Source of the DNA: a virus
Taxonomy: Duplodnaviria; Heunggongvirae; Uroviricota; Caudoviricetes
Length of the DNA: 64,000 nt
Reading direction: 5' to 3' (one strand)
IMG/VR virus record: IMGVR_UViG_3300010049_000010
Location: 64,749-128,748 of that record
The notes under the pieces are model-generated. The model saw only the letters and a program-made list of their open reading frames with translations, made no database searches and was not told the DNA's origin. How positions within the stretch are numbered: position 1 is the stretch's first letter; each line of letters begins with the position of its first letter. Positions 110-38,147 of the stretch are shown one piece after another. A program made the position numbers and the translations under genes.

Positions 110-490
110 TTAAGTCCTCACAATTAAATTTGATTTTTTCAAATTAAAATTATTTTTATCTTCTTTCCAAACTCTTTGATTTGAAGCTAAAATTGCTTTG
201 TTATAAGTTTCATATAAATAACGATACGGTGAAGTTGTATCAGTTTTCTGACCTTTATAAGTTGCGTTTTCTGCTAATCGGAGTTGTGGCTTAGTTGTAT
301 AACCTGTTTTCTTATTATGATAGGGCGCTTGGAATTTTAAGAATTGGGGAAGTCCACGCGTAACCATATCATCAATATTACCTTGAATAGTAAATGAATG
401 TTGTGGATATTTTCCAGGTGTAAATAATGCTTCATTATCATTAAGTTTTATAAATGAATTTTGCATATTATTTCCTCTGTAAAAGTGCAA
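110..490 (-). CDS. hypothetical protein (126 aa)
   Basis: Long ORF co-directional with its neighbours; I recognise no motifs. Confidence 0.4.
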   Translation of the reverse strand: MHFYRGNNMQNSFIKLNDNEALFTPGKYPQHSFTIQGNIDDMVTRGLPQFLKFQAPYHNKKTGYTTKPQLRLAENATYKGQKTDTTSPYRYLYETYNKAILASNQRVWKEDKNNFNLKKSNLIVRT

Positions 491-716
491 TTATTACTGC
501 CGCGATTCCTATTACAAGGAAGAACGCAAAAATTAATCCAATAAAACCTAGAACCAACGCAGCGCCAATCCAAAGCGGTGAAGTTACCCACCACCATGAC
601 CAAGAAATTGCGCCAGTGAGTTTTAATATGAGAAATATACAGAATAGGATAAAACAAGGTGAGCCGATGTTTATCGCATATTCCTTTTTAACTGTAATCT
701 TCGGTGTTTTATTCAT
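468..716 (-). CDS. small membrane protein with two predicted TM helices (holin-like)
   Basis: 82 aa with two long hydrophobic stretches (FILFCIFLILKL... and GAALVLGFIGLIFAFFLVIGIAAVIIALL) and a WSWWW motif. The holin call rests on topology only. Confidence 0.35.
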   Translation of the reverse strand: MNKTPKITVKKEYAINIGSPCFILFCIFLILKLTGAISWSWWWVTSPLWIGAALVLGFIGLIFAFFLVIGIAAVIIALLQRK

Positions 717-4275: not shown

Positions 4276-4894
4276 ACAATTTTTAATTCATAGACAAACT
4301 ATTGGTATATTGGGAATTATATTGCCATTCGCATGTTTATTTTTTGGTATGTTAGATCCGGCAGCAACAGGCGGGTGGTTTCACAGTATGTCAGCTACAT
4401 ATTTTACTAATGCGAGAGATATTTTCGTAGCAGTATTAATGATGGCAGGCGCTTTTATAATTACTTATTCAGGTTATGACTGGAAAGACAGACTTGTAAA
4501 TATATCTGCTGGTATTATGGCATTTGGAATCGCATTATTTCCAACAGCACCAAGCGGGTTAGAAATTGCTAAGATTGGATTGTTTTCCGTTCCTGTTGGT
4601 ATATCTGCTGTATTGCATACTATTTGTGCCGTATTATTTTTTGGATTACTCGCGTTAAACATACTTTGGTTATTTACTAAAGGCGAATCGGGAACTCCTA
4701 AAAAGAAACTTAGAAACTTAATTTATATGATATGTGGTTGGGGGATTGTGGGATCATTCGCACTAACTGCTATTGGACTTATATTTAACTTCCACGATAT
4801 GTGGATTTGGATTATGGAAGCAGTAATGCTTATTTTATTTGGTGGAGCGTGGTTAACAAAAGGAAAAGCTATTAAGATATTGAATGATATCTAA
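4268..4894 (+). CDS. polytopic integral membrane protein
   Basis: About six hydrophobic helices. The start was moved to the ATG for MDKQFLIH, because the track start at 4214 overlaps the previous gene. Confidence 0.5.
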   Translation: MDKQFLIHRQTIGILGIILPFACLFFGMLDPAATGGWFHSMSATYFTNARDIFVAVLMMAGAFIITYSGYDWKDRLVNISAGIMAFGIALFPTAPSGLEIAKIGLFSVPVGISAVLHTICAVLFFGLLALNILWLFTKGESGTPKKKLRNLIYMICGWGIVGSFALTAIGLIFNFHDMWIWIMEAVMLILFGGAWLTKGKAIKILNDI

Positions 4895-4925
4895 CTATCT
4901 ATTATTAAAGGAGCGTTGAGGCATA

Positions 4926-5969
4926 ATGAAAATTCGAGAACTTTTTAAGAACAAAAAAACAGCTCTAATATCAGTCGTGGGGATTGTATTAGTAATATTG
5001 TTTTGTATATGTTTAACTATAATGTATAACATAATGACTATTGAGAAGGATTCTAATTTTGCTGTGCACCAGATATTACAAAATAAATGGTCATACACCG
5101 AATCCTTTATGAGAAAACTGTTGATTGAAAATGCAGAATTAGCGGAGAATTTAGCTGACCAAATTATTTTAGATGCAAGAAGATTCTCAGATGAACAATT
5201 AACACATTATCTTAATACGATAAACTTAGCTGATGAAAATGCATTTAGACCTCTAATTGAAGACGTAATAAAAGGAGTATATTTTAGAGATATACCAGCA
5301 GATTGGAATGATCCTTTCGTAATGATAATCGGAAAAAACAGAGAAGAAGATTCTTTTATTCTAACGGATTTTTCTGAAAATTGTTCAATTGAAGATTATG
5401 CTTCTGAAGGTGAAATCGTAAGATATATGGAAGACGAATACAGATTACATGCAGACCCTGTTTTAGCAAGACATGCATTTAATAATATAATGGATTTTAA
5501 ATCTGGAGAAATTTGGGAAGGCGTAAATTTCTTCCAATTTTTGGACTGGTTACCCAGTGCAGCGAGATTTGAATCCTATGACTACAGAGGATTAAGAAAA
5601 GCGTTCTTTGATAATGATGGTGATTTAAGAAAAACTTTTGGAGCCATTGAAATTTTGACTCCATATTATATTTATAGAGACAGAGATATTGTAGGGAATC
5701 CTAGAATCGTTAATAGACAAATATCAGATACAAGAATTATTGTTGTTGTAAGCGCATTTAATCCTTATGATATAATGGTACGAGATTATGATTTCAATGC
5801 AAGGACGCGACAATATTTACAATCAATCGAAAATATCAGACTCGAACATCAAAAATCAAAAACCTTCTTATTGAAACTTAATCTTCTTTTACTCGTCATT
5901 GATATACTTGGAATCGCCCTAATTTATGCAGTTTTAATCAATTTACGAAAGAAGAGCGGACAACAATAA
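4926..5969 (+). CDS. membrane-anchored protein (N- and C-terminal TM)
   Basis: AGGAG Shine-Dalgarno site 8 nt upstream; TM helices at both ends. Confidence 0.5.
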   Translation: MKIRELFKNKKTALISVVGIVLVILFCICLTIMYNIMTIEKDSNFAVHQILQNKWSYTESFMRKLLIENAELAENLADQIILDARRFSDEQLTHYLNTINLADENAFRPLIEDVIKGVYFRDIPADWNDPFVMIIGKNREEDSFILTDFSENCSIEDYASEGEIVRYMEDEYRLHADPVLARHAFNNIMDFKSGEIWEGVNFFQFLDWLPSAARFESYDYRGLRKAFFDNDGDLRKTFGAIEILTPYYIYRDRDIVGNPRIVNRQISDTRIIVVVSAFNPYDIMVRDYDFNARTRQYLQSIENIRLEHQKSKTFLLKLNLLLLVIDILGIALIYAVLINLRKKSGQQ

Positions 5970-5983
5970 GGAGTGTGATTTAA

Positions 5984-6955
5984 ATGGAACAAGAAGCAAC
6001 GGAGTTACTCAATTTAATAGTAGAAACTAGTACCACTGGTGACATTTCTCAAACTATTATAGTGATTGCACTTGAATTATTATTCTTTCTCGCCGCATCT
6101 TCAATAGGTTTAATATTTAGAAACATGTTGGGAGATAAAAAGTTTAGACCTTGGAAAGATATTGGATTTGTAGTAATCACTACTATTATATTATTCACTA
6201 TCGGAAATTGGGTTAAAACATTAATACCAGACTCAAGATTATTCTTCTTAGTAAGCGCAGTTATTGCAGCATATCTTCCAAAAATATTTATGGCTCCAAA
6301 AAAGGGAAGTATATTCGCTAAAATCGTAGCAGTATTTAATCCTCGATGGGCAGAAGTTATAGAAGAAATACATAAGAAAGACGAGATAAATTACGATTGG
6401 GAAAAACAAGGTGATAGAAGGGGTGCAACATCAGGTACTATAAATAATAGGCGTGCTGAAGACAAAAAAATCACTTTTGATAAAGAAGATTTCATATTAA
6501 AAGAACCTCTCGAAATAGCAAGATATCTTGAACCAACTAATCTCTTTGGAAAAATAGAAGGTGATTGTGTAATATTAAAAGATAATATAGCAACTTTTAA
6601 TTTTTATGGTGCGGAACAAATGGATAATAATGTGTTCAGAATCGCAATACCTGATGAATTAAAAACTTATAAAAATGTAAGAATCTCTTTACGATTAACA
6701 GAAAAGAGAATGATTGAAGCTGGAAAGAAAGTTAAGATACAATTCAAAGCTGGACCTGATAAAGACTTATTACCTTATGATAAGTTTGAATTGCATTTTG
6801 ATGAAGTCAATGATTCTAACAGCCAAGAAATACAGATGAGTAAATTACCTCATGGTGCAGTATACTTTTGTCATAATCGTTATGGACACGGTTCTGGAAA
6901 GCCTGTAGAATATTCTCTTGAAGTTACAATGATACATTTCTTTGACAAAGAATAA
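5984..6955 (+). CDS. membrane protein with a soluble C-terminal domain
   Basis: AAGGAG Shine-Dalgarno site; three N-terminal TM helices. Confidence 0.5.
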   Translation: MEQEATELLNLIVETSTTGDISQTIIVIALELLFFLAASSIGLIFRNMLGDKKFRPWKDIGFVVITTIILFTIGNWVKTLIPDSRLFFLVSAVIAAYLPKIFMAPKKGSIFAKIVAVFNPRWAEVIEEIHKKDEINYDWEKQGDRRGATSGTINNRRAEDKKITFDKEDFILKEPLEIARYLEPTNLFGKIEGDCVILKDNIATFNFYGAEQMDNNVFRIAIPDELKTYKNVRISLRLTEKRMIEAGKKVKIQFKAGPDKDLLPYDKFELHFDEVNDSNSQEIQMSKLPHGAVYFCHNRYGHGSGKPVEYSLEVTMIHFFDKE

Positions 6956-6987
6956 TTCATTAATATGAGCTCTTAAAACTAAATAAT

Positions 6988-9249
6988 ATGGCAAAAGAGA
7001 AATTAAACGAGTCAACATACCAAAGTGGACAAAGACCAAAATCAGAAATATTCAAATCAAGTTTTAATAAAAGATTATCCTCATTGTGGGGCTGGCAAGG
7101 CGTACAGAAAAAAGACGCTCAATCAGAGTTTGAAAAAGTAAATGGACTTAGACTTGTAAAAGTAGATGTTCAAAATGATTCATATAGAGTTAAGCACGCA
7201 GCATTAGGTTCGATATTTAAGTCTGCGCCGTTAGCTACATCGTTAAATAAGTATTTCAACGCTTATGTAAATGAAACGACGCTCGTGTATTCTGACATTG
7301 CAGAAAGACAACAAAGATTAAATGAATTAAGATTTGCTGTTTTAAATGATCCATTTTTATCTCGAGTTTGCCAACTTGTATCAGATGAAGCTACACAATT
7401 AGATGACCAAAATAGATTATTATCAGTAGAGTCACCATCAATACCATTCGTAAATAAATGTTATGAATTATTTTCTCAATGGGGTTTAACGCAACAAAGA
7501 ATTAGCTCAGTTTGTTATGACCTCGAACAATATGGTGAAGCACTTTGGTCACATAGAGTAACGGAGAAAGGCGTAGAAAGCATACAGCCTCTTAAAGTTC
7601 CAGCATTAAAAGAAAGATTAGAATTTAGTGCGGCCCGCATGGCTGAAGTTGTATCTCAAATGACAGGCGAACAAGAAACTATGAAGAATCGTTCTACTAA
7701 AATTGGACGATTAGTAGACCTAATTACAACTCGATCAGGCAGAGATCAACTTTCAGATCTAGATGAAAATTTTGCTGATATGTTTAGCTCAAAATTATTA
7801 GGCTTTGAATTCGCCGATGGAATAATAGTACCACCTTGGTTAATTTCTCACTTCAGATATAGAGCTGATAACTCAGAATTTTTCCCTTATGGAACGCCAC
7901 CTCTTTTAATGGCGCTAGCTCCATTTAAGATGTGTTATTCAACAATGCAATTACAAGGATTAGCGAGAGCGAGTTCTTTCCCAGTTCAAATATATAAAGT
8001 AAAACAAACAGAAGGTGTTGGTGTTGCAACCGCATTTGAAACAGTAAACTCAGTTCGAGAAGATTATGAGAATATCGGAGTAAGCCCACTTTCTAATTCA
8101 CTTGAAGTTTATACTGTCAATACTAAAATTTGGGTGCCAGATGGTCTTCTAGAATTCGAAGTGCAAAAATCTGAAGTTGATATGGACTTTACTGGCGACT
8201 TAGAAATGTATCAGGACAGGGTAGCGACAGCTTGTGGTATTCCGAAAGGATATCTTGACCAAGAGTTTGGTGGTTTTGGACAAAGTGGTATCGCATTAAT
8301 GGAACAATACAAACCATTTGGACGACATGTCTATACTATCCAATCTAGTTTCTTGGAAACGCTCGGACAACTTATAAGATTACATTTCGCAATTACTGGC
8401 GAGTTTGACTACAATATCCCATTCGTATTATCAATGCGTTTCCCTGCTGAAGATATGGGTGATGAAAAACGAGAAGCAAGATCAGCTTCAGTTGAACTTG
8501 CTAACGGTATTATTGAGATGTTACAAGGCGTTCTCGGAATGGAAGAAGGTGAACCACTTCCAGAAGATGTAGTAGCAGATATTTTAAGCAAATACACATT
8601 CTTAGATCCAACAGATTTACAACGATGGATCCGATTATCAGCAATAGCTAAAGCTGCAGCTGCCGCTAACTCAGAAGGAGAGGACGCCGATGATGATGGC
8701 AGTGGAGGGGACGACTTCGGCGGAGATATGGGTGGAGGAGATATGGGCGGAGATGATATGGGTGGCGATGAAGGCGGTGGAGATGAGGGTGGTGGAGACA
8801 TGCTTGAATCTATGTCAAAAGAAGCCAGAACATATTATCTTAAAACGAGAAAATTACTCCAAGAAAAAGAAAATAAAAAATTAAAAGAAAAGAAATTAAG
8901 ACGATTAAAAGAAATAAGTGAAAGATATAATGAAAGTAAAAATGAGATATATTTTAATTTCTTAAAAGAAAATCACTTTACTGAATGGCAGAGACCGGGA
9001 AAAGGCCACGAAATGATGATACCTAAAGTATTACCAACTGGCGTATATAAACATATGTATGAGACTTTTAAAGTATTAACTGATGATGCGTCTAAAAACT
9101 TATTAAGCGGAGCAGGCAGATTACGAGAAAGAGAAATGAGCGTAACTGATATGTTAAATGCGTCTAAACAAGATAATATGACTTTAGATGTTATGTTAAG
9201 CCAGCCTCTTCAAGAAAAAATGACTTCTGAGCTCGATGAAAATCTATAA
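6988..9249 (+). CDS. large hypothetical protein (753 aa) with a GGDMGG low-complexity repeat and a basic coiled-coil C-terminus (possible virion protein)
   Basis: The aactaaataat-ATG box abuts the start. It carries the repeat GGDMGGGDMGGDDMGGDEGGGDEGGGDM and then a KKLKEKKLRRLKE stretch. Confidence 0.5.
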   Translation: MAKEKLNESTYQSGQRPKSEIFKSSFNKRLSSLWGWQGVQKKDAQSEFEKVNGLRLVKVDVQNDSYRVKHAALGSIFKSAPLATSLNKYFNAYVNETTLVYSDIAERQQRLNELRFAVLNDPFLSRVCQLVSDEATQLDDQNRLLSVESPSIPFVNKCYELFSQWGLTQQRISSVCYDLEQYGEALWSHRVTEKGVESIQPLKVPALKERLEFSAARMAEVVSQMTGEQETMKNRSTKIGRLVDLITTRSGRDQLSDLDENFADMFSSKLLGFEFADGIIVPPWLISHFRYRADNSEFFPYGTPPLLMALAPFKMCYSTMQLQGLARASSFPVQIYKVKQTEGVGVATAFETVNSVREDYENIGVSPLSNSLEVYTVNTKIWVPDGLLEFEVQKSEVDMDFTGDLEMYQDRVATACGIPKGYLDQEFGGFGQSGIALMEQYKPFGRHVYTIQSSFLETLGQLIRLHFAITGEFDYNIPFVLSMRFPAEDMGDEKREARSASVELANGIIEMLQGVLGMEEGEPLPEDVVADILSKYTFLDPTDLQRWIRLSAIAKAAAAANSEGEDADDDGSGGDDFGGDMGGGDMGGDDMGGDEGGGDEGGGDMLESMSKEARTYYLKTRKLLQEKENKKLKEKKLRRLKEISERYNESKNEIYFNFLKENHFTEWQRPGKGHEMMIPKVLPTGVYKHMYETFKVLTDDASKNLLSGAGRLREREMSVTDMLNASKQDNMTLDVMLSQPLQEKMTSELDENL

Positions 9250-9260
9250 CTAAATATCTA

Positions 9261-11069
9261 ATGGATATTTTACTTCATGAAACGCAATTAAAGCATTTCG
9301 TAACATCTGGAATAACTAATAAGTCAATTCAAAAAGAAGGCACGGGGGATGTCGACCTTAAAAGAGCTCTCTTAAATTATCCCTCATCATTGCATCTCGT
9401 ATATGAAGTAGATTCATCAAAGGGTGGCGCTACTATTTTTACTGCAAACGGACAAGAATTAGCAGGCTTAAATAGGGGATATACGGTCCAACTTTACTTT
9501 GAAAATATAAAAAATATAATGCCAAATAATTTTACGTCTCTTCCATATAGCCAACAAGCTGCTATATTACAGAGAGTGTTTGATAAAGCTGATGTAAAAG
9601 TTCAATGCGATTGTGGAAGTTTTTACTGGCAAGGCATGTCTGAAAAAGACAGCGATAAGGGAAATACACGCCCACCATTTAGTGGGCATCCAGGAAAAGA
9701 TATTTGGGCAAGCAGGCATAATGCAAGCGGGAATGTCCAGGGACAACAATTGTGTAAGCACCTTTGGGCGGCTGTAGAACATATAGACGGGGATATCCCA
9801 AATATAGTAAAGAGCTTGTCTGGCACTAAGGCTACTACCTCAGCTGCAACTGCTACAACACAACCAACTGACGCATTAGAAGCTCCAGACCAACCAGCAG
9901 GATTGCCGGATGAAAGAGTAAAATCTAAAGGTGGAATTAAATCAGATAAGGCTGCGGATGCAGTTCAAGCTGATATTGATGAAGTTCAATCAAGATCAGA
10001 ACAGAATGATTTGCCAACTTTAGACACAACTGAAACAGAAGCTAAACCAGTTGAAGAAGAAACTGAAGCTCAAGAAGGACCTGAAGACGCAGAACCACCA
10101 ATTGAAGAACCAAACGTTAGCAAAAGTTTAGAACCTGAATTAGAAAAAGAAGAAGATGATTTGCTTGAAGAACCTCTAGACACTAAAAGTAAGCCTGTTG
10201 GACTTGTAGAGTCATTTGAAAATATATATTCAAATTCATTAAAAGAAATGATTGCGTTACCAATTCTTAGAACAGGTGGATATTATGATGATATAGAGTT
10301 AGAAGCTGATAATGATGATGCAGATGAAATAAGAGAAAAATTAAATAATATTATAATTCCAGCTAAAAAATGTTTATCATCAATAGGGGTTGATGATGAT
10401 TATTATGCGTCTGAATTGATTTCAATGTTAGGGAAATCAAAAAATGATAAATCATTTGTAATTATAGATACTGATATGAATCCTGTAGGTTTTTCAATAT
10501 TTAAAGTTCGAGGAAAAAAGAAAATAAAAGACATTTTAGTTATTAGTTTTTTAGATACTAATAATATGTCGATTGCAAAACATATTATTGAAAAAGTTGA
10601 AGAGTTTAGAAAAAAAGGTTTTGAACTTGTTTGGGACGTATTTTTAGATAATCCAATCAAACGAGCTTATGATAGATTTGTTGATAAATTAGGCGGGGAA
10701 AGCTGGGATGAATATTTGCATGAAGTTGATCGTCCAGTAAGACGATATAAATTAAGTCCATTAACAGAAAGACTACAAGAAATTTTAGAATATGTAGGCG
10801 ATTGTACAGATGATAATTATGCCGGCTATAGAGATGAAACTTGTATGGCACAAGACTTAGGTTATTATTCTACATTTAATGAAGATTCAGATGGTAAGGA
10901 AAAAGATAGTAATTTTTCTAAAATAAGTGAAAAAGAATTTATTAAAATGTGCCCGGACTTTAAAAAAGTAATCGGACAAAATGAATGGTTATTCCTCAAA
11001 AGATTTGATGACACAGTTTATTGTGCGTATAATTATGATGATGACATTCATTATTTTTGGGCCGACTAA
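9261..11069 (+). CDS. SWIM-type zinc-finger protein with an acidic E/P-rich linker
   Basis: A CxC…CxH arrangement (QCDCGSFYW … QLCKHLWAAVEH), followed by a long acidic low-complexity segment. Confidence 0.45.
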   Translation: MDILLHETQLKHFVTSGITNKSIQKEGTGDVDLKRALLNYPSSLHLVYEVDSSKGGATIFTANGQELAGLNRGYTVQLYFENIKNIMPNNFTSLPYSQQAAILQRVFDKADVKVQCDCGSFYWQGMSEKDSDKGNTRPPFSGHPGKDIWASRHNASGNVQGQQLCKHLWAAVEHIDGDIPNIVKSLSGTKATTSAATATTQPTDALEAPDQPAGLPDERVKSKGGIKSDKAADAVQADIDEVQSRSEQNDLPTLDTTETEAKPVEEETEAQEGPEDAEPPIEEPNVSKSLEPELEKEEDDLLEEPLDTKSKPVGLVESFENIYSNSLKEMIALPILRTGGYYDDIELEADNDDADEIREKLNNIIIPAKKCLSSIGVDDDYYASELISMLGKSKNDKSFVIIDTDMNPVGFSIFKVRGKKKIKDILVISFLDTNNMSIAKHIIEKVEEFRKKGFELVWDVFLDNPIKRAYDRFVDKLGGESWDEYLHEVDRPVRRYKLSPLTERLQEILEYVGDCTDDNYAGYRDETCMAQDLGYYSTFNEDSDGKEKDSNFSKISEKEFIKMCPDFKKVIGQNEWLFLKRFDDTVYCAYNYDDDIHYFWAD

Positions 11070-11250: not shown

Positions 11251-12309
11251 TTGAAAAGAGTAAAATTATTAGCACAGGCATTCTGTATGCTTGTCGTCGC
11301 GTTTTTCATCATGAGTTGTGGTGGAAAAGAAAAACTATATCTATTCAACTGGTGCTACTATACGCCGGAATCAGTTATTGAATTATTTGAAAAAGAATTT
11401 AACGTTAAAGTAGTTATAGACGAATTTGCGTCTAACGAAGATATGTTTGCCAAATTACGCTCAGGCGGCGGCGGTTATGACATTATTTTCCCTTCAGCTG
11501 ATTATGTTTCTATTATGATTCAGCAAGACATGCTTGCTACAATTGATCCTGATAGAATCCCAAATGTTACTAGATACTTAAATCCTGAAATTAGCAAGTT
11601 TACCGGCAAATTTGATGAGGGAAATAGATACAGTATTCCATATTATTTCGGCGCTGTAGGCATTATGGTTAATACGCAACGAGTGCCTAACTTTGAAAGA
11701 AGTTGGAATATTTTTGAGCGAACAGATCTTGCCGGCAGAATGATTATGTTAGATGATATGAGAGAAGTTATGTCAGCCGGTATTCTCAGATGGAATGCGA
11801 GGCCTGATATAAATACAGCTGATCCTGATATAATTCACTTTACGAGAAATCTAATCAATCAATTCTGGAAGCCTAATTTACTTAAATGGGATTCAGAGGC
11901 TTATGGTAAAGCATTCGCTAATGGTGACGCTTGGGTAATTCATGGCTATCCTGAAAATGTGTTTGAAGAAATTGCTGGAACTCCGCTCGAAGAATATACA
12001 GTATTTTTTATGCCACAAGAAGGCGGGACTGTATTTTTAGACAGCATGGTTATTCTTAAAACTTCTAAGAGACAAGATTTGGCTCATCAATTCATAAATT
12101 TTATTTATAGACCTGATATTTATGCGTTATTTGCAGATGAGTTTAGATTTCCAACTGAGCAAATTCACACTGAAGCACACAATCATACTGAGTCAATTCC
12201 AATGTATTCTGCGGCGGACGTATTAGGCGGACATATAATTATTGATGTGGGAACTGCATTAGATTATTATAATGAAGCTTGGTATAATTCTATCAGAGTA
12301 GGCAATTAA
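11251..12309 (+). CDS. PotD/PotF-like periplasmic polyamine (spermidine/putrescine)-binding lipoprotein
   Basis: TTG start with an AAGGAG Shine-Dalgarno site and a lipobox (FIMSC). LYLFNWCYYTPESVIELFEKEFNVKVV and SGGGGYDIIFPSADY closely follow the PotD/PotF N-terminal signature. Confidence 0.65.
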   Translation: MKRVKLLAQAFCMLVVAFFIMSCGGKEKLYLFNWCYYTPESVIELFEKEFNVKVVIDEFASNEDMFAKLRSGGGGYDIIFPSADYVSIMIQQDMLATIDPDRIPNVTRYLNPEISKFTGKFDEGNRYSIPYYFGAVGIMVNTQRVPNFERSWNIFERTDLAGRMIMLDDMREVMSAGILRWNARPDINTADPDIIHFTRNLINQFWKPNLLKWDSEAYGKAFANGDAWVIHGYPENVFEEIAGTPLEEYTVFFMPQEGGTVFLDSMVILKTSKRQDLAHQFINFIYRPDIYALFADEFRFPTEQIHTEAHNHTESIPMYSAADVLGGHIIIDVGTALDYYNEAWYNSIRVGN

Positions 12310-12331: not shown

Positions 12332-12967
12332 ATGCAAACATTTAGTGAGATACATAAACAACATCTTAAAGAATTATACATACCCATAGGTTGGAAAAAT
12401 CCTCAAATTATAAATAAAGACACTGGTGACGTTTTAGATATTAAAATAAATAAAAAATTAAATAATATTCCATCTAAGCCAAATTGGGATCATGCTAATC
12501 GTGGAGGTTTTACTGACGCATATCGTCTTGTAAAGGACGCGGCTATAGACACAACTTATGGGTTTGAGTCCTTTTTAATTTTAAGCAATGAAGAAGATGA
12601 TGAACCAATTGGAGTCATTTCATTTAAGACGAGTGATGAATTAAATGGCGCGATGAAGCTTATATTAGACGAAAATGTTGATTGGGAATATGACCCTATT
12701 GCTGATTGTATAGTTGAAGCATATTTAGTTGGATTTAAAGAAAATAATTTTACTTTAGTAAAAGACATGTTTAGACTATTAGATCAAATGATTGAAAAAT
12801 ATGAATATATTGGTTGGTCAGTGCATAATAACGCGCCTGTAAAAAAGATATATGATAAAGTTTACAAGTCTAAAAAATATGAGATGTTTACAAGCAATCC
12901 TAGTTGCGATAAATATTCAGGTGAAGCATATACACAATATGTAATATTAGGAGATGGAAATCTATAA
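12332..12967 (+). CDS. hypothetical protein
   Basis: The start was moved to the ATG abutted by cactaaataat (MQTFSEIHK…), because the track start at 12314 is a TTG inside that box. Confidence 0.45.
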   Translation: MQTFSEIHKQHLKELYIPIGWKNPQIINKDTGDVLDIKINKKLNNIPSKPNWDHANRGGFTDAYRLVKDAAIDTTYGFESFLILSNEEDDEPIGVISFKTSDELNGAMKLILDENVDWEYDPIADCIVEAYLVGFKENNFTLVKDMFRLLDQMIEKYEYIGWSVHNNAPVKKIYDKVYKSKKYEMFTSNPSCDKYSGEAYTQYVILGDGNL

Positions 12968-13683
12968 TGAAAAGTTTCTCAGAAATATTACAAGAACAAA
13001 AATATAATAATACGAATAGAATTTATTATCATGGATCTAGAGATCCAAATCTTGATCTAAAAAACTTTTTCAAAAGAGGAGAAAATAATGCTCAATGTTT
13101 TTATTTAACTCCTACATATGATTATGCAGTTCAGTATGCTCGAAACAAACAAGAGATGGCACTGGCTTATAGATCAGATGCAAGTGTCGCTTCTGGGGAT
13201 GATTCTGCTGTTTATCATTGTAAAATAATTAAACCTCTAAATATTTGTAATGCTAAATCTAAAACTGACTATGAATTTCTATTACATGAAATAGAAAAAT
13301 TATTGTTTTACATAAATGATAATGATAGAATTGAACGACCTGAGGGTTGGTTAAAAAGAGCATGCAAAAGAGCTGCAGATCAACTTGTTTTTAGATTTAA
13401 GGAAGAAGATTGGATTGAAGTTATTCATGATGAAAATAACAGAGAACATGAATTGTCTTTTCCAATGAGAGATAAAATAATTGACGCTATTAAAAAAGGT
13501 GGATATGATGGTTATTATAATTTTGAAACGGAAAAGGATGAGTGCGGTCCGTCAATTGGAATTTTTTCTGGAGACTTAACTTCAAAAATAAAAATATTAC
13601 GAAAACAAATAATTAGATATAAATTATACAGTGACCCAGACGAGGATCCTAGATACTTTCGCCAGTACGGAAATTGGCAATAA
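12967..13683 (+). CDS. hypothetical protein, weak member of the MxxFxxILxE N-terminal family
   Basis: N-terminus MKSFSEILQEQ resembles the MRTFKQILREA family. Confidence 0.5.
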   Translation: MKSFSEILQEQKYNNTNRIYYHGSRDPNLDLKNFFKRGENNAQCFYLTPTYDYAVQYARNKQEMALAYRSDASVASGDDSAVYHCKIIKPLNICNAKSKTDYEFLLHEIEKLLFYINDNDRIERPEGWLKRACKRAADQLVFRFKEEDWIEVIHDENNREHELSFPMRDKIIDAIKKGGYDGYYNFETEKDECGPSIGIFSGDLTSKIKILRKQIIRYKLYSDPDEDPRYFRQYGNWQ

Positions 13684-13686
13684 AAA

Positions 13687-13717
13687 AGCCCGCATTGCTG
13701 CGGGCTGGATATTTTTA
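13687..13717. terminator. bidirectional rho-independent terminator
   Basis: 8-bp stem agcccgca/tgcgggct with loop ttgc, flanked by an A-run on the 5' side and a T-run on the 3' side. It lies between convergent genes. Confidence 0.65.
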
Positions 13718-13729
13718 AATAATTTTAAG

Positions 13730-14128
13730 TTACACGATTTCTGGAAGGTCGGCGAGTTCGCCATTGCCATCAACTGGGTTCACTTCTTCGACAGTGAAAA
13801 GTTCCGGCTGGGCATTTTTCTTCGCTCTGCGAGCTGATACCTTGCCGTTAACCTTGATTGAAAGGGCCGCGGTAAACTTTGCCTTTGCAGCATCGCGTTC
13901 GGCACGTGCTTCTGTGATAAGGGCGAGCCTTTCATCGCGTTTTGCCTGGCGTTCTGCCTTGCGGGCTTCAACAGCGGCGACGTAAGCGAGCTTGTTTGCA
14001 TCCTTGAACGCATCCATCTGTGTTTTGAGCAGGGCGTTGATTTCCGCGCCGACCGCAGGATTCTTTGCCATTTCTGTAGCAAAAGCCGCAAACAATTTTT
14101 CTGTTCTGTCTCTAAGATCTTTTCTCAT
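13730..14128 (-). CDS. basic Ala/Lys/Arg-rich small protein on a GC-rich (about 50%) island; putative nucleic-acid-binding protein
   Basis: The ORF exactly spans a roughly 400-bp block whose GC content is close to twice that of the flanks. Charged helical sequence (KAERQAKRDERLALITEARAERDAAKAKF). Confidence 0.5.
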   Translation of the reverse strand: MRKDLRDRTEKLFAAFATEMAKNPAVGAEINALLKTQMDAFKDANKLAYVAAVEARKAERQAKRDERLALITEARAERDAAKAKFTAALSIKVNGKVSARRAKKNAQPELFTVEEVNPVDGNGELADLPEIV

Positions 14129-14215
14129 TTTTCATTCTCCTTGAATGGTTGTTTATATTAGGTTTCCCTGATAATAATATATAAGATTTTTAGAAAAGCC
14201 GTTCAAAAAAGAAGT

Positions 14216-14671
14216 TTATCTTCTAGCGTAAAGCTGCCGCCACATTATCGGAATTTTGTTTAGTTTTGCGTTATTGAAGCCTAATTTTGCATAATAAGTC
14301 TTAAGTTTTACAGTTCTGGCTTGAAGCGTACAAGACGTCTTGCCCTCAGATTCGGCTATAGAAATGAAGTCAGTTATTATCGTTTTTCCAATACCTTGGT
14401 TTTGATATTGTTTAATCACTTCTAAAACGGATAAATGTATTGAATTAGGAAAGTAATTATTTTCACACACACATATAAGCGCCAAAGTATTTCCGTTATC
14501 ATAAATTAAATCATTATTTTCTTTAAGACATTCATACCAAGCATATTTAACTTCATCGTAATATCCGTCGCCATGAGTTCTATTTGGACCAATATATTGA
14601 AATACGAGCGGGAAATCCGTTTCAGTGTATTTTAACTCAATATCATTAGGAGTCGTTCTTATGTACCGCAT
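14216..14671 (-). CDS. GNAT-family N-acetyltransferase
   Basis: Acetyl-CoA-binding motif QNQGIGKTII; size 151 aa. Confidence 0.6.
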   Translation of the reverse strand: MRYIRTTPNDIELKYTETDFPLVFQYIGPNRTHGDGYYDEVKYAWYECLKENNDLIYDNGNTLALICVCENNYFPNSIHLSVLEVIKQYQNQGIGKTIITDFISIAESEGKTSCTLQARTVKLKTYYAKLGFNNAKLNKIPIMWRQLYARR

Positions 14672-16982: not shown

Positions 16983-17891
16983 TTACAATTTGGCGTTAAA
17001 TTCATAAAATCCTCCAGGAATGTTCATAACAAATTCTAAATTAGTTCCGTTTTCAACATTCCATTTTTCTAATTCTTTTTTAAGCTTAAACTTATTTATA
17101 TTTATTTCTCTTCCGTCAGAATATGACTCGCCTTTAGTTAAATCTGATTCATTTAATTCTATTTCCATTCCAATTCCAAAATAAGGTTCGCGATGGATTT
17201 TAACTACTTCATTTAATAATGCGTACACTACATCTTTTTCTTTTTTGAGCACATACATATCAATTGAGTCATGAACATAATTAAACACTCTAGATCTAAA
17301 TCCCCATTTTTTGAGATGCATATTTATACAAGTAACGTCAGGCATTGCGTGAACGATTTCAGCAGTTTGAATAGATGTATTACTGGCTACATTTTTTAGA
17401 TTAGAAAACATTTTAGAATATAATTTTCTGTCAATGCCAATTAAATTACCTTGGGCATTTTTAGACATTAATCTTAATTCTGGTAAGTGTCGAACTGGAC
17501 CAACCCAAGTTCTAACGTAACCATGTTTCATCGCGAACTTCTGTTCTCTTTCTACTCGCTCTAATAATGATGGATAAGTTTTGAAAAATAATTCTCTTAG
17601 TTTATTTCCCAATATAACGTATTTTAATTCTTTTTCGCTTAATTTATTTGTGGGATTTAATTTAGCTTGATTATATGCTTGCCAAAGATTGAAACTATCA
17701 AAAGCAGTTTCACAATCATCTTCAGTGAAACCTGCAGCTTTCATTTGTCTGCCTAATGTCGGACCTTGACAAGCAAATAATGTTGCAAGACCTACAGTTT
17801 TACCATTAAATCTCATCTGTTTAAATGGACTAAATTTTTTCAATTTGAGAAAGTCTTCCATTGTCATATCACGTTTTGTTATCTTATACAT
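16983..17891 (-). CDS. family-A DNA polymerase, C-terminal fragment (fingers O-helix plus palm motif C)
   Basis: KQMRFNGKTVGLATLF matches motif B (RRxAKxxNFGxLYG), and YVHDSIDMYV matches motif C (VHDE). Confidence 0.75.
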   Translation of the reverse strand: MYKITKRDMTMEDFLKLKKFSPFKQMRFNGKTVGLATLFACQGPTLGRQMKAAGFTEDDCETAFDSFNLWQAYNQAKLNPTNKLSEKELKYVILGNKLRELFFKTYPSLLERVEREQKFAMKHGYVRTWVGPVRHLPELRLMSKNAQGNLIGIDRKLYSKMFSNLKNVASNTSIQTAEIVHAMPDVTCINMHLKKWGFRSRVFNYVHDSIDMYVLKKEKDVVYALLNEVVKIHREPYFGIGMEIELNESDLTKGESYSDGREININKFKLKKELEKWNVENGTNLEFVMNIPGGFYEFNAKL

Positions 17892-18144: not shown

Positions 18145-18479
18145 GATAACTCACTTAATCCTTTGAAATAATCTATATTTTTTTGCATACATTCCATTAC
18201 GTATTCTAAATCTTTAATTTTTTCTTCATATTTTGATTTCATTGCCTGTAATTCAATATCCTCACAAGAAATAAAATTATAACAAGGTCCTTCATTGGGA
18301 TATGAATCAGGAGTCGCGACATTACAAAATGAAATAGATTTAATATCTCCCATTTCAAAACTTATATCACAATCATGTAGTTTAATAAATGGAGTATTTG
18401 CGTTTGCTGGATTTCCAAAAAAGATATTGTAATGTTTAAGCATAATCAATCCACTCATCTGTTTGTTGGAATTCCGCAC
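18141..18479 (-). CDS. small protein located between the two polymerase fragments
   Basis: ORF only; I see no HNH, GIY-YIG or LAGLIDADG motif. Confidence 0.4.
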   Translation of the reverse strand: MRNSNKQMSGLIMLKHYNIFFGNPANANTPFIKLHDCDISFEMGDIKSISFCNVATPDSYPNEGPCYNFISCEDIELQAMKSKYEEKIKDLEYVMECMQKNIDYFKGLSELS

Positions 18480-20541
18480 CCTTAATTATAATTTCATCTT
18501 CCTCATCAATCATTCCGTATCTTTTAACTTTTATTTTTTGTGTTTCACCAAAGATAATTTTCTTTCCAGTTTCTTCACATTCAATTTCAATTACTTTAGT
18601 ATGAATTGGTTTAACAAAAGTTCCAACAGTTGTAGCTGAGTGAGCATCTTTATGTCCCTTTTCACCGTAGATTTCATAAGCAATTTGATCCACTCCGCCT
18701 TTGCTAATTCCATTATCAGCGAGTGCAAGACGAAATTGAAGTGAAGCAAAGTCGGCGGAAATTACAAGCCACTCGTCACTGTTATGTGATTCTGGTTCTC
18801 CAATTAAATCATCTTCTAATTGAGTAAGATTAGGCGGAGCTTCAAATAATTTCTTAATATGTTTAGCGATAGTTGAACCTGATGGTATTTGTTGAAAATT
18901 TGGATCATTCATTGCGTGGCGGAAACTTTCTGTACCGAATGTATTACAATTCGGATGTATTCTCCAAGTTCCATCTTCATGTTGCACCATCCATTTTCTC
19001 CAACCTTCAATAAATGTTCCTAATGCAACGTTATATGATCTAAAGTCTTTAAGTGTTTTAATTCCCGGAAGATTCAATAATTCATACTCATTAAGAACTG
19101 GGTCACCTGTTCCATATCCTCCGGCTTTTGATTCTGAGACTTTTGGCCATTTCATTTTCTCAAATAAAGCGCCTAATTCTTTTGGAGATTCAAATTTATA
19201 ATTTTCATCTACATTCCAAACTTTGGCTAATTCTTTTCTTAATTCTATTATTTTATCTCTAATTATTTTTTCAGACGCATCAAATTTTGCTGGACTAAAA
19301 TATATTCCTTCATATTCTACTTCAGTAACAGTGTTTGCGTTTGGTATCATTATTTCTTTATAGAAACGATTTATAGTCCATTCGGGTTGTTTCTCATTTG
19401 GGAATTTTTTATCTAACCATTTGCAGTGTTCATCGAGCGCTAACTGTAATCTCCAAGTCACTATTGGATCTAAACCGGCATATTTACAAAGCACCCCTCT
19501 CGGAATTTCGAGATAATTATTTACTTTTAATTTCTTTTTAATTTTATCTAATTCGTCATCATAGCCTATAAACTTTCCACAATAAAATACTGCCCCAGTT
19601 TTTAATCCCTTCGGCCTTCCTGAATTTATCGCATGAGATAATAAAGCCGTATCATCTGTTGGAAACCAACCTTTAACACCGTTCCACCAAATAAACTTCA
19701 TATCGAACTTTGCGTTAGATAAAGTGATTCGTCTAGCAGAAGTCAGTACTTGTTTTAATATTCTTTTATCTACAAGTTCCCAAGGTAATACGAAGCCGGT
19801 ATAACCATCATTGCTAAATTGAATATAACCTAATTTATCTCGTATAAAATGGAAACCGCCTGTTTCTGTATCAACTGCCAATAATTCAGAATTGACAAGT
19901 GATTTTAATATATCAGAAGCTTCTTCTTTAGAATTGGCCAAGACGATACTATAATCTCTATCATCAAGTGATTTAGTAGTCATATCATCATTTTGAATTA
20001 ATTTTAATCTTGAACGAAAAGTTTTAGTAAAGAAGTTAGTTGGATCATTTCCCAATTGAATCGGATATAAATCTTTAATGTTTGCGACTGGATAAATCCA
20101 TTTGTCGGGACCGCCAATAAATTCCGAACCGCAAAAATATCTTGGACTATTCAATTTATCATCAATAAATTCATAATAGTTTACGTCACCTGATTTGTTT
20201 AGAATACGAATTGTTGATCCGAAAGCGATTATACATTCGCATTCTGTTTCATCAAAACTTAGATATTGTCTCCAAGGACTTTCAATTGAGAGTAAAAATG
20301 TAGTTGAATCTTCTTTTGGATTTTTTACAGATATTGCAGATACAATATTATATGATTTAATACCTGCTTTAATTATATCTTTTTCTAAAGTGTCTAAATA
20401 TATTTTTGATAAAATATCATCAACCAGAAAGAGATAATATTTCTCCCCTGGTTGATATTTTTCGCGTAATAAGCAATCATGCTTTTCTAAATTTTGTTTA
20501 GGTTTTTCCGTTTGTCGAACGCCACCAAAGTTAAATGCCAT
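18436..20541 (-). CDS. family-A DNA polymerase, N-terminal fragment (3'-5' exonuclease plus palm motif A)
   Basis: Exonuclease motif I LLAVDTETGG, motif II SNAKFDMKFI and motif III KYAGLD. The pre-motif-A signature NTFGTESFRHAMNDPNFQQIP matches TGRLSSxxPNLQNIP, and motif A is VISADFASLQFRLAL. Confidence 0.8.
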   Translation of the reverse strand: MAFNFGGVRQTEKPKQNLEKHDCLLREKYQPGEKYYLFLVDDILSKIYLDTLEKDIIKAGIKSYNIVSAISVKNPKEDSTTFLLSIESPWRQYLSFDETECECIIAFGSTIRILNKSGDVNYYEFIDDKLNSPRYFCGSEFIGGPDKWIYPVANIKDLYPIQLGNDPTNFFTKTFRSRLKLIQNDDMTTKSLDDRDYSIVLANSKEEASDILKSLVNSELLAVDTETGGFHFIRDKLGYIQFSNDGYTGFVLPWELVDKRILKQVLTSARRITLSNAKFDMKFIWWNGVKGWFPTDDTALLSHAINSGRPKGLKTGAVFYCGKFIGYDDELDKIKKKLKVNNYLEIPRGVLCKYAGLDPIVTWRLQLALDEHCKWLDKKFPNEKQPEWTINRFYKEIMIPNANTVTEVEYEGIYFSPAKFDASEKIIRDKIIELRKELAKVWNVDENYKFESPKELGALFEKMKWPKVSESKAGGYGTGDPVLNEYELLNLPGIKTLKDFRSYNVALGTFIEGWRKWMVQHEDGTWRIHPNCNTFGTESFRHAMNDPNFQQIPSGSTIAKHIKKLFEAPPNLTQLEDDLIGEPESHNSDEWLVISADFASLQFRLALADNGISKGGVDQIAYEIYGEKGHKDAHSATTVGTFVKPIHTKVIEIECEETGKKIIFGETQKIKVKRYGMIDEEDEIIIKGAEFQQTDEWIDYA

Positions 20542-23539: not shown

Positions 23540-23878
23540 TTATCCATTTTTTACTTCCCAATCTTGTTCGTTATTTAAATGTCCATTTTTATCAATAGTT
23601 TCATAAATATCTGCTTTGTATTCAAAGCCATTTCTTTCTAAGTTTCTTTTTACACGTCTCAATAAAGTTTTATCCATTATTAAAATACTTTCTTCCAAAA
23701 ACATTAAAGCTTTAATTCCAGTAAACCATAATGGGGGAGTGAGTAGAATTAACATTCCGATGTGATGATCAGCACCAAAATAAATTATAAATGGTATCGC
23801 AAAAATAAATAATATTACACAATAAGAAATAAGTTTAATGAAACAATAAATTAAATCTCTTGTAAATGATTTAAACAT
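23540..23878 (-). CDS. small membrane protein (two TM helices)
   Basis: Hydrophobic helices. Confidence 0.4.
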   Translation of the reverse strand: MFKSFTRDLIYCFIKLISYCVILFIFAIPFIIYFGADHHIGMLILLTPPLWFTGIKALMFLEESILIMDKTLLRRVKRNLERNGFEYKADIYETIDKNGHLNNEQDWEVKNG

Positions 23879-24034
23879 CTATATCCTCGATTAAGTTTTC
23901 TATTCCGTCTCTGAAAGCATCAATCATATCTTGATAAATTTCTTCTTCTGTCAATTCTCCCGAATCATCCATTGACATATTTTCCGTAATTTCCAAAATA
24001 GATTTTAGTCGTTCAATAATTAATGCTTGTGTCA

Positions 24035-24400
24035 TCATCCTTCTCCATCACCTGTGACGATAATTAAGTCGTCTTTAGTTTTTCCAGTTATTTTTAATAA
24101 TTCTTTTATTTCTGTTTTCTCATGTATGTCTTTAATAGGAAGCACCATTTGCCCAATGCAGCAGTCTTCATAATCTATATGAAGCATTGTAGCTCCAATA
24201 TATTCTTTATCATCAACCGTTTCATGCTGTAAATTTAAATGGTCAGAAAAAACATAATATGGCCCACTGTTAAATTTATCTTCTAAATTTTTATCCGTAT
24301 TATATTTTTCAATAATGTCTTTTATATCGTCAACTTGAATCGCAACTAAAATAAAACTACTTGCAGAACTATTAGATACGAAGCCATTTCTTATTTTCAT
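24035..24400 (-). CDS. MKIRNGFVSNSSASSF-family protein (paralog 2)
   Basis: Shared N-terminus. Confidence 0.55.
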   Translation of the reverse strand: MKIRNGFVSNSSASSFILVAIQVDDIKDIIEKYNTDKNLEDKFNSGPYYVFSDHLNLQHETVDDKEYIGATMLHIDYEDCCIGQMVLPIKDIHEKTEIKELLKITGKTKDDLIIVTGDGEG

Positions 24401-36243: not shown

Positions 36244-36465
36244 CTAGTTTTCATTTATTTGATCCCATGCTGAATCCCAGCCAACTTGATGTCCATGCTC
36301 GTAACCGTTGTCATTGCCGGATTCCCAAGCGTCTTCTCTTTCTGCTTCAACTAATTCATCAATAAAATCTGTAAGCTCTTCAGCAAGCGCGTCATTCATT
36401 ATGCGATAATTTGCTAAAATAGCTGATAAATTATCTATTATTTCGTCACGTGTTTTAGTTTCCAT
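36244..36465 (-). CDS. small acidic protein
   Basis: ORF only. Confidence 0.35.
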   Translation of the reverse strand: METKTRDEIIDNLSAILANYRIMNDALAEELTDFIDELVEAEREDAWESGNDNGYEHGHQVGWDSAWDQINEN

Positions 36466-36880
36466 TTCTGTATTTTCCTTTTAATAATTCGATTGGCCCT
36501 TTGAAAGTCCCAGTGTGACCTGCTTTTGTAAAAATAAGAGGATATCTGCTGTTTTTAGTTTTGAAGTCTACGATTGTGATAACTTCGCCTTTTATTGTAA
36601 GCCACTGCGCACCTATAAACCCACCGTCAAAATCACTGTGAATTTCGTTACAGTGAAAAAGTTTTCTGGCGACTGCTCGACAAGCTCTCATTTCGAGATT
36701 TCTGTCAACAATCGGTTTTCCGCCCCACATATTTTTGACTTCAAGTTTTGTGTGAAAGCCTGCATCGTTGTATGAAATGTTATTCAAATTTATCTTGACA
36801 TTGTAATTTTTTTCTAGTTGAGCAACCGCACTGGCAAAGTCTGCTCTAAACTCTTTTAATGTTTGTTCGTTCATATTCAT
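36455..36880 (-). CDS. hypothetical protein
   Basis: ORF only. Confidence 0.4.
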   Translation of the reverse strand: MNMNEQTLKEFRADFASAVAQLEKNYNVKINLNNISYNDAGFHTKLEVKNMWGGKPIVDRNLEMRACRAVARKLFHCNEIHSDFDGGFIGAQWLTIKGEVITIVDFKTKNSRYPLIFTKAGHTGTFKGPIELLKGKYRNGN

Positions 36881-36896
36881 AATAATATATAAGATA

Positions 36897-38147
36897 TTAT
36901 GAATTTATGTTCAAACCTACTAACTTCCCAAGTTTAGTGTCTTCTTTAACAAGTTTTAATAAATAAGGGTTTGATTTAGCATCAAAAATATTTTTAGATA
37001 AATCAGTAATTGATCCATCTTTTACTGCCATATTATATAATTCAGTTCCTTTATAAATAATAACAGAACAATAAAAAACTCTATCAAAACCAATTTGTTG
37101 TATCTCTGGGATATTATATCTTACATCATTAATATTGTCCCATGGAAATCCAATTAGAACATTAGAACGAACTTCAAAATCATATTGTTGAAATAATTTA
37201 ATCACATATTCTAAATTATCTAATTTTGTTAGACCTAATTTTCCTACATTTTTCATTGAGTCAAAAGATACTGAATCAAGATTAAGACATACAACACAAA
37301 TTTTTGAATTATTTCTATCACATATTTCACTATATAATCTGACAAGATCTTCATCAACCATAGTAAAATCAATATCTAAAAAATATATTTTGCAATTTTT
37401 TTCTTTAAGAAATTGCATGATAGTCATCCAATATTCTTTTTCAGCCCAAGGCACATCATCTAATATAAGAAACGATTGAGCTCCATTATCTATGTAATAT
37501 TGTAAATCTGAAATTACTTTTTCTATAGATGGATATGACCTAATACAATTTCTTATTAAAGGATTTGGACAAAATACGCATGCATTTTCGCATCCTCTAG
37601 TAATCATAATAGGCATGTGTTTTTCTATTCTTTGAATAGGTTTTAATATATCTAAATCTTTTAAAACATAATTATAAACATTTTCTTTTCTCATTGTATA
37701 CCAATAAGGAGTATTTAGTAAATATTCTTTTTTGTTTTCAGCTTCAATAAGTTCTTTCATCGGAACTTCACCCTCACCCATACAAATACCATCAAAATAT
37801 TGAATAAGTTTTTCTTTTTCTATATTAGAATAATATCCGCCCGCTACAATAAGAGAATTTTTATATCTTTTCTTTATTTTAGTAATAAATTTAATAAGTC
37901 TTTTTTCATCATTTGGAATAAAAGAGAGAGATACTCCTACAATGTCTGGTTTCCAAAAAATGAATTTAGGAGTTCTATATATTATTTCAAATTTGTTAAT
38001 AATATCTGAACAAAATGATTTAATACATTCTAATCCAAAATGAAAAAATTTGATAGAGAAAAAAACTTTATGAAATGAATATGCGAGAAAATGAAATAAA
38101 TCAAATAAAGTAAATTTATTATAATATTTTATTAGCAATATATTCAT
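36897..38147 (-). CDS. B12-binding-domain radical SAM enzyme (paralog A)
   Basis: N-terminal Rossmann-like cobalamin-binding region (…SLIVAGGYY…GEGEVPMKELIE) and a CX3CX2C motif (GCENACVFC). Confidence 0.65.
   Translation of the reverse strand: MNILLIKYYNKFTLFDLFHFLAYSFHKVFFSIKFFHFGLECIKSFCSDIINKFEIIYRTPKFIFWKPDIVGVSLSFIPNDEKRLIKFITKIKKRYKNSLIVAGGYYSNIEKEKLIQYFDGICMGEGEVPMKELIEAENKKEYLLNTPYWYTMRKENVYNYVLKDLDILKPIQRIEKHMPIMITRGCENACVFCPNPLIRNCIRSYPSIEKVISDLQYYIDNGAQSFLILDDVPWAEKEYWMTIMQFLKEKNCKIYFLDIDFTMVDEDLVRLYSEICDRNNSKICVVCLNLDSVSFDSMKNVGKLGLTKLDNLEYVIKLFQQYDFEVRSNVLIGFPWDNINDVRYNIPEIQQIGFDRVFYCSVIIYKGTELYNMAVKDGSITDLSKNIFDAKSNPYLLKLVKEDTKLGKLVGLNINS

Follow-up and report, generated by a model that had tools for sequence, protein, structure and literature searches.

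A gene-sized GC island in a clade of AT-rich, uncultured jumbo phages appears ancient and may be maintained by selection on expression

The 64,000-nucleotide stretch of viral DNA considered here (the window; positions 64,749 to 128,748 of IMG/VR record IMGVR_UViG_3300010049_000010) belongs to a 328,413-bp metagenomic contig that we take to be an uncultured jumbo phage. On its minus strand, the open reading frame (ORF) 13730..14128 encodes a protein of 132 amino acids (aa) and has a GC content of 50.9% in a window of 31.7% GC, a background somewhat richer than the 28% given in the initial annotation of this locus. The same annotation had pointed to an island of about 50% GC at this ORF, and the island is evident upon recalculation rather than dissolving into a uniform composition: 400-bp sliding segments average 31.6% GC across the window (standard deviation, 4.5%), whereas the richest segment of the whole 64 kb, which starts at position 13661, reaches 51.5%, about 4.4 standard deviations above the mean. 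The GC-rich block runs from approximately 13726 to 14075, inside the ORF, the body of which has about 54% GC. A shift exactly at both borders of the ORF had been claimed. This is correct for the 3' border, which is the stop codon, but not for the 5' end, where the first ~13 codons are AT rich (codons 2 to 13 have 28% GC). Marked GC skew was not observed.

The reading frame is truly coding, since a comparison with its homologues shows differences at codon positions 1, 2, and 3 in 49, 44, and 86 of 127 codons, respectively. The GC contents at these positions in the ORF itself (GC1, GC2, and GC3) are 0.63, 0.41, and 0.49, and it is the third that sets the gene apart: GC3 is 0.12 to 0.29 in all other long ORFs of the window and averages 0.21 ± 0.07 over the 87 other ORFs, so that the codon usage is indeed foreign to the window, as had been noted. 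Among the real genes in this set of 88 ORFs the island gene ranks first, the sole higher value belonging to a 53-aa alternative-frame ORF that we regard as spurious. When the protein is back-translated with the window's own codon table, a GC content of only 38.6 ± 1.2% and a GC3 of 0.18 ± 0.03 are obtained. Hence, about 7 of the excess GC points can be attributed to the Ala/Arg richness of the protein, and about 12 of the 19 are synonymous. Four other local GC maxima (45 to 48%) occur in the window, at 8321-8900, 9501-10140, 31361-31980, and 63441-64000, all within large ORFs. These ORFs have high GC1 and GC2 with an ordinary GC3 (0.16 to 0.24), and the maxima are therefore effects of amino acid composition, unlike the island.

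Relatives of the island protein are few. A word-indexed search of 5.8 billion proteins returned 3 matches, a profile search of 1.84 billion representative proteins returned 14, of which 3 are long, repetitive, and probably spurious, and a few further family members came to light in a second indexed search. The gene is found on three IMG/VR viral contigs of 108 to 329 kb, and the family as a whole is very small and purely metagenomic, with roughly 15 to 20 clusters. For comparison at the DNA level we used 11 distinct members, all of them on metagenomic phage-like contigs, which answers in the affirmative the suggestion in the initial annotation that the same unit might be sought in other phages. 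The corresponding search for bacterial carriers gave nothing: no relative of the protein turned up when 185,579 genomes of bacteria and archaea were scanned by pattern, and no bacterial homologue was found by the profile search among the 1.84 billion representative proteins. Likewise, tblastn against 50,697 GenBank phage records gave no match. All 11 members are GC islands, with 44 to 59% GC in the gene versus 26 to 48% in the rest of the contig, an excess of +0.10 to +0.26 GC, and a GC3 of 0.38 to 0.69.

The gene is laid out as a compact transcription unit, in agreement with the earlier description of a terminator-bounded single gene. A putative sigma-70-type promoter, recognized from its sequence, lies at 14178..14206 on the minus strand, with the -35 element TTGAAC at 14206-14201, a 17-nt spacer, and the -10 element TATATA at 14183-14178; a generic promoter scan, which demands T as the last base of the -10 hexamer, does not report it. 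Around these elements a conserved motif, TTTTGAAC-N15-CTTATAT, can be recognized. In its strict form it stands upstream of the gene in 10 of the 11 family members, and in the remaining one, L012, it precedes a small upstream ORF. This strict motif is rare, with about one copy per family locus and three in the 64-kb window, and a relaxed version is enriched in the window (7 matches versus 1.4 expected from shuffles). The promoter is followed by a 5' leader of about 45 nt (14129..14173, minus strand) with a possible stem-loop and a Shine-Dalgarno sequence, AAGGAG, at 14142-14137, 8 nt upstream of the ATG; every family member has AAGGAG or AGGAG. The small possible stem-loop is at 14173-14156 (core AGG-GAAA-CCT), and RNAfold places a short hairpin near the predicted 5' end of each of the 10 leaders that were folded. 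The stems differ in sequence (GGGA/TCCC, TCCAGC/GTTGGA, CTGGAT/ATCCAG, and CCCC/GGGG) and, as they comprise only 3 to 6 bp, the leader hairpin is tentative.

Within the coding sequence (13730..14128, minus strand), the AT-rich codons 2 to 13 are followed by the GC-rich body. Much the same is seen across the 11 members, in which codons 2 to 11 have a mean of 36% GC versus 46 to 59% (mostly 52 to 59%) afterwards; the first ~10 codons are AT rich in most members, and AGA codons cluster there. As a rule, efficiently translated genes keep their initiation region unstructured, and the AT-rich first codons fit this. Downstream of the gene, an intrinsic terminator hairpin, AGCCCGCA-GCAA-TGCGGGCT, is located at 13687..13706, with an 8-bp stem that includes six G-C pairs and a 4-nt loop. 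ORF 13730..14128 is the last gene of a minus-strand block that meets a plus-strand block here, and the hairpin is common to the convergent genes 12967..13683 (plus strand) and 13730..14128. The initial annotation spoke of a strong bidirectional terminator at this border; the hairpin is there, and the T-run is perfect on the minus strand (TTTTTT), but the plus strand has a weaker one. Nine members have enough downstream sequence for comparison, and in each of them the gene is followed by a GC-stem hairpin, mostly with a T-run, which is weak in L001 and L010; the terminator hairpins of L007, L013, and L016 have almost the same sequence as that of the window.

Further copies of the promoter motif occur elsewhere in the window: strict copies at 723-750 and 36887-36914 and a relaxed copy at 32695-32724, all on the minus strand. 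Such copies precede the gene for an 82-aa membrane protein (468..716) and an operon of small genes (36455..36880) that continues into the gene for the ATP-dependent DNA ligase. The genes behind the strict copies at 750 and 36914 have the next-highest GC3 values (0.34 to 0.36, ranks 3 to 5 of 88) and stay phage-like for AAA and AGA. The mRNA starting at the 36914 copy may be near-leaderless, given that the -10 element is only a few nucleotides from the ATG. A promoter-gene-terminator unit of the same kind is also present in L017, a more distant jumbo phage on a 213-kb contig that also encodes a Cpn60 chaperonin. There it stands after the gene for a 1138-aa DUF6267 protein (4473-7889 and 8001-8429 for the two genes). 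This different context points to either a rearrangement of the genome or long-term movement of the unit as a cassette.

The nature of the synonymous bias becomes clear from a codon table pooled over the 11 members (1,478 codons) and compared with the long ORFs of the same contigs. AAG accounts for 83% of Lys codons in the family versus 18% in the phage background, and CAG for 83% versus 19% of Gln codons. Conversely, TTA drops to 4% of Leu codons (59% in the background), ATA to 10% of Ile codons (40%), and AGA to 23% of Arg codons (62%), and CCC, GGC, GCC, ACC, and ATC are all used more in the family than in the background. GAA and GAT, however, are largely retained, at 73% of Glu codons (86% in the background) and 70% of Asp codons (76%). 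This codon-specific shift, with AAG, CAG, and CTN replacing AAA, CAA, and TTA while GAA and GAT are kept, is found in every member. It is most extreme in L017, where 23 of 24 Lys codons are AAG but only 1 of 11 Glu codons is GAG, and where GC3 reaches 0.64 in a contig of 30% GC.

An island of deviant composition in front of its own terminator invites the explanation that was initially given, namely, that a single-gene 'moron' was recently acquired by horizontal transfer from a GC-rich donor and has not yet been ameliorated. The foreign composition and codon usage and the unit's own promoter and terminator are what such an acquisition would leave behind. The comparison of relatives argues against it. 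In six lineages (W, L001, L007, L008, L013, and L016) the gene follows the same two genes, p147 and a gene for a GNAT acetyltransferase (in the window, 14216..14671 on the minus strand; assigned by Pfam Acetyltransf_1/7/10, a PHROG acetyltransferase match, and synteny). The GNAT gene lies directly upstream of the island gene in all six but outside the unit, with a separate promoter, and we saw no relatives in which the p147/GNAT slot lacks the island gene. Pairwise identities among the six lineages are 41 to 59% for the island protein and 39 to 56% for p147 and GNAT, and those of the island protein correlate with those of its neighbors (r = 0.63 to 0.70) as well as the two neighbors correlate with each other (0.63). 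Between members, 62 to 68% of third codon positions differ, which amounts to saturation, and yet in each phage the GC3 of the island gene is 0.25 to 0.35 above that of the neighboring genes. A recent import is thus contradicted by the same-slot island in six diverged lineages, its codivergence with its neighbors, the saturation of synonymous sites, and the fact that every homologue is a GC island. It also sits poorly with a promoter that is AT rich, common to other genes of the phage, and conserved across the family, and with the failure to find a bacterial homologue in the genomes and representative proteins searched. Furthermore, since the gain in GC is codon specific, with GAA and GAT retained, a generic GC-rich donor is an unlikely source. 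We therefore consider recent acquisition very improbable and conclude, as far as comparisons of sequence can tell, that the island gene is ancient and vertically inherited in a clade of uncultured, AT-rich jumbo phages.

The comparison with morons is nonetheless instructive. Morons, which are found in lambdoid prophages, are autonomous units of promoter, gene, and terminator whose composition is typically deviant, and they are defined by their presence or absence between otherwise adjacent genes of related phages together with evidence of recent import. The island unit resembles them as a single gene with its own sigma-70-like promoter, an intrinsic terminator, and a composition unlike that of its neighbors. 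It differs in being fixed in one slot in six lineages, in codiverging with its neighbors, and in having a promoter type that is common to other genes of the same phage. The term that was applied to it initially is therefore apt for the architecture but not for the history, since neither presence/absence polymorphism nor evidence of import was found.

A more subtle possibility is that the gene was captured from a GC-richer host before the radiation of the clade, its composition being a relic whose decay was slowed or prevented by selection. This scenario differs from the explanation we prefer in origin only. It gains some plausibility from the codon fractions of the family, which resemble those of Treponema loci (r = 0.73, versus 0.40 with the phages' own genes), Treponema being the probable host clade, and from the capture of other host genes by these phages, namely those for a PotD-like binding protein and hybrid histidine kinases. 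The PotD-like gene (11251-12309, plus strand) encodes an SBP_bac_1/8 lipoprotein with a lipobox. Its product is 49 to 55% identical to proteins of Treponema sp. (metagenome assembled), Rectinema, and other Spirochaetes, and the gene is therefore plausibly host derived. Its GC3, however, is 0.28, almost the phage level, compared with 0.54 to 0.69 at the bacterial loci. Amelioration thus operates in this lineage, since a host-derived gene has fallen to such a value, and a passive relic in the island should have decayed as well; it follows that the island must be actively maintained. The promoter and leader of the island gene, moreover, are of the phage type, and neither the pattern scan nor the profile search retrieved a bacterial homologue. 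Capture from a host before the radiation hence seems quite unlikely to us.

If the composition is actively maintained, the question becomes what is being selected. One answer is GC content itself, at the level of the nucleic acid, for instance to give a long-lived mRNA or one resistant to AU-directed RNases, to escape AT-targeting silencers or nucleases, or to preserve an overlapping cis-acting DNA element such as an origin, a packaging site, or a nucleation site. In line with this, the island is 10 to 26 points above the background whatever the GC content of the phage, even in a relative of 48% GC, a 5' hairpin and a 3' terminator would suit a stabilized mRNA, and a uniform GC shift, once fitted, describes the pooled codons roughly as well as a host codon table does. 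Such a uniform push predicts about 50% for each codon pair, though, and is thereby wrong for Lys, Gln, Glu, and Asp. The abundant residues Glu and Asp would offer 'free' gains in GC but largely stay with GAA and GAT, whereas in every member more than 80% of the Lys and Gln codons end in G. In addition, the coding sequences fold no better than synonymous shuffles, with no extra structure in terms of minimum free energy (mean z = 0.07 over the 11 members), there is no nucleotide conservation at synonymous sites, and a marked GC skew is lacking. Selection on GC as such is, in our view, unlikely, although it carries some weight.

A second feature overlapping the gene, such as an antisense or alternative-frame gene or a noncoding RNA of the attenuator type, could also constrain synonymous sites. 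Long alternative frames are open at 13780..14091 (minus strand, 103 aa) and 13764..13985 (plus strand, 73 aa), and an Rfam Trp_leader match was obtained at 13680-13778 on the minus strand (38.6 bits; E = 1e-6). The alternative frames, however, do not exceed in length those of synonymous shuffles and fail to stay open throughout the family, and the substitution pattern fits the annotated frame. As for the Trp operon leader (RF00513), we rejected this assignment, as the score is below the gathering threshold of 41 and there is no Trp-rich leader peptide. The subthreshold match, which overlaps the 3' end of a conserved coding sequence, is carried and explained by the terminator hairpin. We give this alternative almost no credence.

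In contrast to selection on bulk GC content, selection on expression and translation would account for the codon-specific form of the bias, and we regard an expression-optimized unit maintained by selection as the probable explanation, with considerable room for doubt. The island gene is the only one of the 88 ORFs with a positive host-versus-phage log-likelihood ratio (+0.49, versus -0.58 ± 0.22 for the rest). According to this proposal, the gene would form an autonomous unit with a host-type promoter, a short leader, a strong Shine-Dalgarno sequence, the coding sequence, and an intrinsic terminator, in a clade whose contigs measure 108 to 329 kb and whose hosts are probably Treponema or related spirochaetes. 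Selection would hold the ~12-point synonymous bias against the AT-biased background of the phage, avoiding the phage-typical codons AAA, CAA, TTA, ATA, and AGA, favoring AAG, CAG, CTN, ATC, and CGY, and leaving GAA and GAT in place. The purpose may be efficient, high-level translation with the tRNA pool of the host, probably early, when there are few genome copies; the conserved host-type -35 element of the promoter is our reason for placing the unit among the early genes. The AT-rich first ~10 codons would keep the initiation region open.

Several points weigh against this proposal. A parameter-free Treponema model of the codons (-1.742 bits/codon) does not beat the fitted one-parameter uniform shift (-1.698), and AAG, at 83% in the family, overshoots the 39% seen in the Treponema loci. 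Those loci contain no ribosomal protein or other highly expressed genes and so do not establish which codons are 'optimal', and the host was deduced from one auxiliary gene, that for the PotD-like protein. No other ORF of the window shares the bias (GC3 is at most 0.36), so that the island gene would have to be almost the sole target of translational selection. Finally, the level and timing of expression are read from sequence features, just as the host and the function of the protein are deduced indirectly, the latter from the charge distribution, the predicted helices, and a tail motif.

Codon usage that varies between classes of phage genes is not without precedent, as early and late phage genes differ in codon usage, partly in connection with adaptation to host tRNAs and with GC content (PMC5683454; Mioduser, Goz and Tuller 2017). 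The island gene likewise differs in synonymous codon use from the other genes of its phage. Unlike the statistical shifts between gene classes described in that study, however, the effect here concerns one gene that is ~20 GC points above its genome throughout the clade, with a sharply codon-specific pattern in which AAG and CAG are used together with GAA. What is unusual is the size and the clade-wide conservation of the codon effect for a single gene.

The protein itself was described in the initial annotation as basic and rich in Ala, Lys, and Arg, which is borne out by its composition (20.5% Ala, 19% Lys plus Arg, and a pI of 9.4). It is probably a small, basic, alpha-helical coiled-coil protein: the AlphaFold2 model has a helix at residues 2 to 22, a long helix at 24 to 106, and a disordered tail, with a pLDDT of 78 and a pTM of 0.37 from a shallow alignment of three sequences, and with pLDDT values below 50 at residues 110 to 120. 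Charge is distributed unevenly, with net values of +2, +9, and -7 for successive segments of the window protein. Among 16 members, the net charge ranges from 0 to +4 over the first 50 residues and from +7 to +13 over residues 51 to 105. An alignment of the C termini of these members delimits a predicted disordered tail at residues ~106 to 132 (13733..13813, minus strand), which is acidic in the window's subfamily (-5 to -8) and about neutral in the other subfamily. The conserved motifs are AY-A-V-ARKAER, EAKAKFAAALAIKVNG, and, in the tail, EV(V/N)(D/P)…G(G/A)L(A/S)DLP. The tail motif G-x-LADLP is accompanied by a C-terminal EIV in the window protein and by EIF or DIF in relatives; an (E/D)I(F/V) terminus is present in 7 of the 16 members, and the other subfamily ends in …LADLPNL. 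Searches of Pfam, NCBIfam, and PHROGs with the window protein and with 12 family members gave nothing consistent, only scattered single-member matches, and a profile search of PDB sequences gave nothing either (best E = 0.22). Foldseek against PDB and BFVD was also negative, a single long helix being a poor query for a fold search.

Judging from these features, it is plausible that the protein is an abundant nucleic acid binder. Our best guess would be a nucleic-acid-coating protein, made in large amounts, that recruits a partner via its LADLP…(E/D)IF tail. Phi29 p6, T7 gp2.5, and T4 gp32 are abundant early phage DNA-binding proteins with acidic C-terminal tails, comparable to the C-terminal tip of bacterial SSB, and the docking tails of SSB and gp2.5 end in …DDDIPF and …DF, respectively. 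By analogy, and as a resemblance only, the island protein would share with them its small size, a basic body, and an acidic, disordered tail with a hydrophobic or aromatic end, and its gene lies among replication genes with what look like signs of very high expression. There is no sequence or fold similarity to these proteins, however: the body is predicted to be all helical, not an OB or p6-like fold, and an OB-fold core of the SSB/T7 gp2.5 type was rejected on the basis of the AlphaFold2 model. The tail also differs from SSB-type tails in that the terminal EIF occurs in only about half of the family, LADLP being more general. Similarly, HU/IHF, H-NS, Lsr2, and Hc1 are, like the island protein, small, basic, and rich in Lys, Ala, and Arg, but no member of the family matches a Pfam or NCBIfam model or a solved structure of such proteins. 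These results speak neither for nor against the histone-like or nucleoid-associated binder suggested in the initial annotation. A bolder version of the proposal, which we offer tentatively and would sooner doubt than expect, is that the clade keeps one early gene in the codon dialect of a GC-richer spirochaete host, so that a stoichiometric product could be made from a single incoming genome before the cell is reshaped. The product in question would be a helical protein of a new kind, distinct from OB folds, that acts as a 'phage histone' or genome coat and has an LADLP…EIF tail mimicking the docking peptides of SSB and gp2.5. A scan for other phage proteins with an acidic …IF C terminus brought up a few loose cases, with the tails …DAGDGDLIF (L008 6437-7831), …SDLFDDEELI (window 30694-31140), and …NLIEDIDV (window 23871-24038), all encoded on the minus strand; they, too, might be clients of this docking site, or the resemblance may be coincidental.

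Beyond the island, the contig encodes a split family-A DNA polymerase, ThyX, and an ATP-dependent ligase, and very few of its ORFs match PHROGs. Among the matches listed, its DNA polymerase is at most 25% identical to those of cultured phages. The two parts of the polymerase are encoded on the minus strand at 18436-20541 (701 aa, with exonuclease and polymerase domains) and 16983-17891 (302 aa, with a polymerase domain), with small ORFs between them, and the same layout is found in L001 and L016. Near the island in relatives are genes for large hybrid sensor histidine kinases, an unusual cargo for phages (L007 8418-10535, L013 3880-6006, and L016 8467-10566, all on the minus strand), which carry HisKA, HATPase_c, and Response_reg domains and in one case dCache. 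A further ORF of the window (36897-38147, minus strand; 416 aa and 24% GC) contains a CxxxCxxC-like motif (RGCENACVFCPNP) suggestive of a radical-SAM enzyme, and it had no match in a PHROG scan. A search for tRNA genes in the window and nine related loci was negative.

In summary, compositional islands are routinely read as recent horizontal transfer, and this inference would be wrong here, given that a 20-point GC island appears to be ancient, vertically inherited, and held by selection. The orphan family it encodes is probably among the most strongly expressed genes of an uncharacterized clade of jumbo phages, to judge by its codon usage and signals. Set against the rest of the genome, the gene amounts to a natural experiment on the strength of codon selection in phages whose base composition is far from that of their likely host. 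If our bolder proposal is true, a GC island confined to one gene would be a marker by which the early protein that uncultured phages translate most heavily could be recognized from sequence alone, and the orphan family would represent a new class of replisome- or nucleoid-organizing proteins.

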